From the NCBI GenBank assembly GCA_046351595.1, contig JAXLYE010000002.1:1496022-1560021 (forward strand): DNA of 64,000 bases, read 5' to 3'. Source of the DNA: Polyangia bacterium. Its GTDB lineage: Bacteria > Myxococcota_A > Polyangia > Palsa-1104 > JAEUJZ01. Positions 38,761 to 38,880 of this stretch are shown one piece after another (position 1 is the first letter of the stretch; each line of letters opens with the position of its first letter). Below the pieces are notes generated by a model that searched no databases, was not told where the DNA came from, and saw only the letters and a program-made list of their open reading frames with translations. The position numbers and the translations under genes were made by a program.

Positions 38761-38880
38761 GTCAGCCGCGGTTGCCCCACGCGGCGTCAGCCACGGTTGC
38801 CCCACGCGGCGTCAGCCGCGGTTGCCCCACGCGGCGTCAGCCGCGGTTGCCCCACGCGGCGTCAGCCGCGGTTACCAACG
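38761..38880. repeat. 5 tandem copies of a 25-bp unit (tcagccgcggttgccccacgcggcg), each junction forming a CGCGGC-gtca-GCCGCG palindrome
   Basis: Copies begin at 38761, 38786 (g>a variant), 38811, 38836 and 38861 (degenerate: ttaccaacga). The last copy overlaps the stop of the HEAT-lipoprotein gene. The array lies in the upstream region of the minus-strand cupin gene. Confidence 0.7.

Follow-up and report, generated by a model that had tools for sequence, protein, structure and literature searches.

The end of a HEAT-repeat lipoprotein gene has given rise to a minisatellite that is confined to a single locus. Specifically, a 25-bp tandem array at positions 38756 to 38873 of the window (the whole 64-kb stretch of DNA that was analysed) is a locus-specific variable-number tandem repeat (VNTR) derived from the stop-spanning end of the HEAT gene. 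We hold this descriptive conclusion with high confidence, as the anatomy of the array, its specificity for one locus, its derivation from the gene end, its variability among strains, and its fast, concerted evolution are all directly apparent in the data. The fuller explanation that we favor, with moderate confidence, is that the array was generated by slippage and that the extra hairpins it contributes possibly form a barrier or terminator at the end of the operon. A function of any kind at the RNA level is conceivable, but falls somewhat short of being probable. The array is an instance of an ordinary kind, the bacterial intergenic minisatellite, and is mildly notable for the repeated amplification of this gene end in several lineages.

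Tandem Repeats Finder reports 4.7 copies of the unit with 97% matches and a score of 229, making this the top-scoring intergenic repeat of the window, which has a GC content of 71.9%. Read in the direction of the gene, which lies on the minus strand, the unit is CGCCGCGTGGGGCAACCGCGGCTGA. A pattern search places the starts of head-to-tail 25-mers at 38762, 38787 (with one mismatch), 38812, and 38837, and finds no match to the 25-mer in any of 100 dinucleotide-preserving shuffles. These copies adjoin a gene-end unit that we regard as the founder, namely the last 25 nucleotides of the HEAT gene on the minus strand (38862 to 38886, encoding ...IVGNRG-TGA, with the stop codon at 38862-38864). The gene ends in ...ATC GTT GGT AAC CGC GGC TGA, and its final unit shares 15 of 25 positions with the repeat unit, including the last 12 nucleotides and 14 of the last 15. 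The array starts inside those last 12 nucleotides (N-R-G-stop) and continues downstream, such that each unit copies the last 12 to 15 nucleotides of the gene with its N-R-G codons and its stop codon. The same 12 nucleotides form the 3´ part of every unit except one variant.

Proceeding downstream on the minus strand, unit 1 (38837 to 38861) carries its own TGA in frame +1, unit 2 (38812 to 38836) carries it in frame +2, and unit 3 (38787 to 38811) carries it again in frame 0. Unit 4 (38762 to 38786) is followed by the partial unit cgccgc (38761-38756). Unit 3 is the variant, identified in both the pattern and palindrome searches, with a plus-strand A in place of G at 38793 that makes one stem weaker. 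All units are direct, head-to-tail copies that abut without a spacer. A CRISPR array was considered and rejected, since repeats with unique spacers of similar length are absent and the units abut with a period of 25. Directly after the array, alignment and sequence inspection reveal a C-rich, G-poor tract on the minus strand (38738 to 38758; ccccctcccccgcccttcc in the transcript sense), and comparable tracts are present at the orthologous loci L005, L006, and L019 from close relatives. An earlier description, made from the letters of the sequence alone and hereafter called the sequence-only reading, had proposed five tandem 25-bp copies, of which copy 2 has a point variant and copy 5 is degenerate and supplies the HEAT stop codon. 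This description is borne out by the array boundaries, by the substitution at 38793, and by the degenerate copy (38862-38886), which turns out to be the HEAT gene's own 3´ terminus, where the stop codon reads tca at 38862-38864.

The HEAT gene is the only one of 43 window genes, predicted from third-position GC content, whose last 15 nucleotides recur downstream. The same 15-mer also ends a gene for an RRM-domain protein (62722 to 63333, plus strand; ACCGCGGCTGACGCC at 63319-63337) that has no repeat downstream. The sharing of this 15-mer is probably a coincidence that arises from preferred codons (R-G-TGA).

The palindrome CGCGGC-GTCA-GCCGCG (16 nucleotides, in a 6-4-6 arrangement) occurs perfectly at 38805, 38830, and 38855, and with one mismatch at 38755 and 38780. 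The claim that every repeat junction creates this palindrome therefore holds for three sites, and is slightly overstated for the other two. The HEAT stop codon (tca on the plus strand, the gene being on the minus strand) sits in the 4-nucleotide loop of the last palindrome. An alternative palindrome, GCCGCG-9 nt-CGCGGC (6-9-6), exists within each unit. Part of this palindromy comes automatically with the repeat because CCGCGG is self-complementary. When the array and its flanks are folded as RNA, both the minimum free energy (MFE) and the centroid structures consist of a run of 5- to 6-bp GC hairpins. The MFE of -84.1 kcal/mol lies within the distribution for shuffled sequences (z = -0.87), and the idea of an unusually strong structure was dropped because the stability does not exceed that of the shuffles. 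No U-tract follows any hairpin of the array, the sequence after each stem being GC-rich, and a consensus scan of the array and its immediate surroundings identifies neither a terminator nor a sigma-70 promoter. The GC-rich hairpins do occupy the position expected for an intrinsic terminator, immediately past the final gene of a conserved cluster. A string of hairpins at a gene end endures as the most tenable functional reading, but it must accommodate the missing U-tract, the lack of a terminator call, and the unexceptional folding score.

Comparison with related strains, as the sequence-only reading had recommended, confirms its expectation that copy number is strain-variable. The two loci whose HEAT proteins are 99% identical to that of the window (L005 and L006) are colinear with it and carry 4.9 copies of a 25-bp repeat, matching the window in unit number, whereas L019, from another close relative, has exactly one extra unit at the gene end. 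There are hence four extra units in the window, L005, and L006 versus one in L019, where the four units downstream of the stop in the window are counted as assembled and the assembly may have collapsed copies. The loci L005, L006, and L019 come from separate assemblies of relatives and all carry the array, which indicates that it is not an assembly artefact.

The units evolve rapidly and in concert. Those of the window are identical except for one single-nucleotide difference, whereas units within L005 and within L006 differ from each other at 1 to 5 positions, and the matches among units reported by Tandem Repeats Finder are 87% for L005 and 81% for L006 versus 97% for the window. Columns of the array are 85% (L005) and 80.5% (L006) identical to the window, and long alignments that span the flanks plus the array are 96.7% and 95.5% identical, respectively. 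Moreover, the units carry the gene-end variant of their own strain: GGTAACC or GGCAACC in the window, GCAAATC in L005, and GGAAATC in L019. This combination of copy-number difference, fast divergence, and homogenization within strains that extends to the coding end is the signature of a minisatellite governed by slippage or unequal exchange. When 11 units drawn from four strains are compared, the hairpin arms and the TGA loop show almost no change, and most of the variation is located in the 9-nucleotide spacer. Such a pattern would fit either selection on the hairpin or conversion from a constrained gene end.

More distant orthologues indicate that the HEAT gene end has been amplified more than once, and only within one subclade. 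At L007 and L008 (HEAT identity 89%), a GCGAG-TAA-CTCGC hairpin is followed by a perfect 15-bp repeat of 2.4 copies. At L009 through L012 (86%), all four contigs end 14 nucleotides past the stop codon, where a 25-nucleotide periodicity begins, with the sequence TCAAAACCGCGAGTAG CTCGCGGGG TCAAA at the contig end. These four short-read contigs are independent, yet they end at the same base, and this lineage probably carries a 25-bp TAG array whose perfect repeat would break contigs during k-mer assembly. At L018 (72%), an array of at least 12 units of 11 bp begins within the last codons and runs off the contig (L018:1746-1877), whereas L013 through L017, which encode the same HEAT protein, have only 2.6 copies of a 12-bp unit. 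The contrast between these arrays next to identical HEAT proteins, together with the breaks in L009 through L012, points to length polymorphism within species and to assembly breakage at this site. L020 through L037 (HEAT identity of 70% or less) have no repeat, and show a single hairpin after the stop codon.

Three lineages, represented by the window, by L009 (CCGCGAG-TAG-CTCGCGG), and by L007 (GCGAG-TAA-CTCGC), retain a hairpin that places the stop codon in its loop, each with a different sequence. Compensatory change between the hairpins of the window and L009 was considered and set aside, because their registers differ by half a base pair and the stems are not homologous pair for pair. Amplification does not need a hairpin, since the 11-bp array of L018 is unstructured and folds worse than its shuffles (z = +2.2). 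The structure at the end of the HEAT gene may thus be incidental.

The gene from which the array derives (38862 to 40499, minus strand) encodes, in the 545-residue form that starts with MGTLRR..., a lipoprotein with an N-terminal lipobox (LTGC in the translation) and with matches to the Pfam families HEAT_2 (1.6e-29) and HEAT_PBS (5.5e-23). A longer form of the open reading frame has 561 codons for amino acids, and a homologue of 545 residues is 99% identical to the window protein. Homologues are named as coming from metagenome-assembled genomes of Myxococcales, Polyangia, or Pseudomonadota. A plus-strand open reading frame of 780 codons that runs through the array (38277 to 40619) was taken to be an antisense shadow of the HEAT gene in a genome with 72% GC. 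Upstream of HEAT on the minus strand, Pfam matches identify exbB (41920-42633), a first exbD (41317-41796), and a second exbD (40738-41313), and gene tables show that the order exbB-exbD-exbD-HEAT is kept in every orthologous locus examined. The gene that follows HEAT varies by lineage, and is either a lipoprotein gene with a cupin gene, a PEGA-kinase gene, or a convergent acyl-CoA dehydrogenase gene. A conserved cluster order followed by a variable gene identifies HEAT as the end of the conserved unit, and the single hairpin of distant orthologues, next to those variable downstream genes, is consistent with an operon end.

The PEGA-kinase gene is the downstream neighbor of HEAT in most lineages. 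At L013 (5620-5690), L030, L033, and L034 it is preceded by a conserved AT-rich stretch with a TA(C/A)(G/C)AT-like -10 box located just ~7-9 nucleotides before a GTG start codon, which suggests that this gene might be expressed from a leaderless transcript.

In the window, the downstream neighbor is a minus-strand gene with a Cupin_2 match in Pfam (38265 to 38660), and the sequence-only reading placed the array in the upstream region of this gene and offered a multi-site operator as one possibility. If so, a DNA-binding regulator would recognize the repeated palindromes to control the cupin gene, and this proposal draws on the palindromic unit junctions and on the fact that the array ends ~100 bp upstream of the cupin start codon. 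Among the window, L005, L006, and L019, however, the array adjoins the cupin gene in the window strain only. Breakpoints of blastn alignments show that L005 and L006 have an extra 543 bp (L005:3387-3929) between the C-rich trailer of the array and the region upstream of the cupin gene. This segment encodes a small lipoprotein-like open reading frame (MRIALALVLLGCG...) that has no match in Pfam and that is intact in L005, L006, and L019. The window retains its last five codons and stop codon (gactacacgacgaggtaa) on the minus strand at 38718 to 38735. With an intervening gene in three relatives and a remnant in the window, the 201-bp spacer that brings the array so close to the cupin gene is evidently a strain-specific deletion scar. 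According to blastn, conservation of the 75 bp nearest the cupin start does not depend on the array, and this independence, together with the scar, argues against the array as an operator or promoter for the cupin gene. Furthermore, the unit comes from the coding end of the upstream gene, a 25-bp spacing does not keep the sites on one face of the helix, and both the copy number and the sequence of the array drift among close relatives. The position that an operator or iteron would hold relative to its promoter differs by 543 bp between the window and L005 or L006, and Pfam matches of the neighboring genes include no regulator adjacent to the array that might serve as the cognate binder. We therefore regard control of the cupin gene through these repeats as very improbable; the array is part of the upstream operon, at its 3´ end. 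Even less credence can be given to the related proposal of a REP/BIME- or MITE-like mobile element, of which this would be one dispersed copy that landed here by chance. The array does resemble such elements in that it is short, GC-rich, extragenic, and located 3´ of a gene, and its 16-nucleotide 6-4-6 palindromes at unit junctions, with the alternative 6-9-6 form inside each unit, are comparable to the imperfect palindromic units of ~20-40 nucleotides that characterize REP and BIME sequences. Yet, its units copy the end of the host gene itself and stand head-to-tail without spacers, and the array is flanked by neither terminal inverted repeats nor target-site duplications, grading instead into the 3´ end of the gene on one side and into a partial unit on the other.

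Searches for further occurrences of the 25-mer likewise count against dispersal. There is no second copy in the 64-kb window, on which dispersal within the source genome is judged, either at three or fewer mismatches or by profile, and a profile of the unit run over 270 kb of sequence recovers nothing apart from the array itself, its orthologous counterparts and their gene ends, and the four reference-genome matches described next. Among 185,579 reference genomes (one per species), the exact 21-mer has four isolated matches, all within coding-like sequence, in members of the unrelated taxa Thermomicrobiales, Actinomycetes, Blastocatellia, and Sphingobium; chance alone would yield roughly as many, and we regard these matches as coincidental. 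A degenerate scan for the full unit in metagenome contigs yields L019 as its sole match, which is the orthologous locus, and viral contigs contain no match. No family in Rfam 15 reaches its gathering score, the best match over the array in a permissive search being sX14 with 20.6 bits versus a gathering score of 80.

Three further readings concern what, if anything, the array does, and the main rival to our favored explanation is that it does nothing. As a purely neutral product of slippage, it would mark a mutational hotspot at an operon end that is tolerated because a stop codon is present in every unit, and that has no effect on transcription, mRNA stability, or the neighboring genes. This possibility is appreciable, if unlikely. 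It accounts for folding that is no better than that of shuffles, for extra units that range from 1 to 4 with no visible constraint, for unrelated units in different lineages (one of them unstructured), and for the several other small intergenic tandem repeats in the 64 kb. What it does not anticipate is that three lineages retain a stop-in-loop hairpin despite differences in its sequence, or that the arms and TGA loop are nearly invariant among 11 units, although conversion from the gene end could also yield the latter pattern. At the opposite extreme, amplification in at least three to four lineages, whose units are unrelated to one another (a TGA-bearing 25-bp unit, probably a TAG-bearing 25-bp unit, TAG-bearing units of 11-12 bp, and a 15-bp unit), might reflect a selected, tunable cassette of stop codon plus hairpin or, alternatively, a mutational mechanism specific to this locus, either of which would differ from neutral slippage. 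As a tunable cassette, its copy number would set how much transcription or mRNA stability is passed from the exbBD-HEAT operon to the downstream gene. We consider this set of ideas improbable. The least credible alternative is a translational device, in which read-through of UGA would extend the protein by 25 residues, with ...GNRG once more at its end, or in which the array would act as a three-frame stop cassette for frameshifted ribosomes. A TGA every 25 nucleotides does close all three frames, with the in-frame TGA returning after exactly 75 nucleotides, and the HEAT stop codon is followed by a C. However, the length of the unit is not divisible by 3, as would be expected for non-coding repeats, the unit spacer varies regardless of coding, the single extra unit of L019 means that the extension is not conserved, and Rfam contributes no recoding element.

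Under the favored explanation of a slippage-generated minisatellite, a 25-bp segment of the HEAT gene would have been duplicated repeatedly, head-to-tail, together with the final codons, the stop codon, and the GC hairpin around that stop, all of which it contains. Each unit brings its own TGA, such that gain or loss of a unit would never alter the protein, and we infer that the array is tolerated for this reason. Replication slippage or unequal exchange would then expand, contract, and homogenize the array. In the transcript, the result would be a run of short hairpins, either CGCGGC-UGAC-GCCGCG or, alternatively, GCCGCG-9 nt-CGCGGC. The first hairpin should be covered by the terminating ribosome, and further copies would fall outside its footprint, where they could serve as an operon-end barrier against 3´-to-5´ exonucleases, as a U-tract-less terminator or attenuator before the downstream gene, or as both. 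The C-rich tract (38758-38738) might act together with these hairpins. The precise copy number would carry little or no adaptive meaning. The array is probably an ordinary product of slippage that contributes no more than additional RNA hairpins where an operon ends.

Several known systems share features with this array. REP and BIME sequences of enterobacteria are GC-rich palindromes that follow closely on the 3´ side of a gene, either inside an operon or where it ends, and their established function, which is also the one proposed for our array, is that of a hairpin barrier to 3´-5´ exonucleases or of partial termination, as with the REP between malE and malF. REPs exist as hundreds of dispersed copies, alternate in orientation within BIMEs, and are linked to RAYT transposases, whereas our array occupies one locus with direct copies and shows no evidence of mobility. 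Intrinsic terminators, including the U-tract-less forms of high-GC bacteria, likewise place a GC-rich stem-loop at the stop of the last gene. Here the stem-loop spans the stop codon, has stems of 5-6 bp and no U-tract, is amplified 4-5 times, and is no more stable than its composition would predict.

In its behavior, the array is like the MIRU-VNTR loci of mycobacteria, which are also intergenic, head-to-tail, variable in copy number (here one versus four extra units), located between co-oriented genes of a high-GC host, and overlapping with the codon signals of a flanking gene. MIRU units are ~46-100 bp in length, and the family is dispersed over tens of loci. In contrast, the unit described here is 25 bp, is present at a single locus in a member of the Myxococcota, and originates from the 3´ end of its own host gene. 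It contains no small open reading frame coupled to the downstream start, and it overlaps only the upstream stop codon, the downstream start codon being ~100-200 nucleotides away. MIRUs insert at start codons with little disturbance to expression of the neighboring gene (PMC12548453); in our array, the upstream gene's stop codon is present in each unit and leaves the protein undisturbed. The rapidly evolving repeats of Borg elements are similar in being near-perfect, recent, intergenic, independent in related genomes, and mostly of unit lengths not divisible by three, but they are A-rich and genome-wide rather than restricted to one GC-rich locus of a bacterial chromosome (PMC9879509). Our literature search returned only these MIRU and Borg comparators, and no direct precedent for stop-codon-containing intergenic repeats or for repeat families of myxobacteria.

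These results are useful chiefly for annotation, in which the array should be treated neither as an operator or a mobile element nor as the promoter of the cupin gene. It can be used as a VNTR marker for strain typing in this uncultured lineage of Myxococcota. Perfect copies of such arrays break short-read assemblies, as the four contigs of one relative probably illustrate. More generally, when a duplication takes in the stop codon, the protein does not register it, and a gene end can thereby seed a minisatellite that evolves quickly and in concert. Were copy number to tune read-through at the operon end, such an arrangement would constitute a simple natural dial for gene expression.

The window contains other repeats as well. 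An AT-rich island at 28090-28205 is built of roughly five 21-bp units in tandem, every one of which is an inverted repeat of the form GTTGAT-N6-ATCAAC, and lies between a divergent citrate synthase gene (28044 to 26722, minus strand) and a gene that fuses an HTH_17/MerR domain to a citrate-synthase-like domain (28194 to 29702, plus strand). This island looks like a putative multi-site operator for the fusion regulator. A coding repeat of 15/30 bp with 7-14 copies (30869-31087) encodes an Ala/Lys/Pro-rich segment with a weak match to the histone H1-like HC2 family, and forms the N-terminus of a 488-residue protein (31209 to 29743, minus strand) with a weak VWA match. A near-perfect, GGC-rich intergenic repeat (33 bp, 2.5 copies; 62539-62621) is located just upstream of a gene for an 839-residue DUF5939 protein (62507 to 59988, minus strand), and a perfect 11-bp repeat of 2.9 copies (CGCCCGTTGAG; 48992-49023) ends 4 nucleotides before a predicted plus-strand gene start at 49028. 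Finally, a 16-bp repeat of 3.2 copies with 94% matches (15874-15923) lies immediately downstream of a gene for a beta-helix protein (17586 to 15952, minus strand), and is thus a second small repeat just past a gene end, in this case with the stop codon not included.
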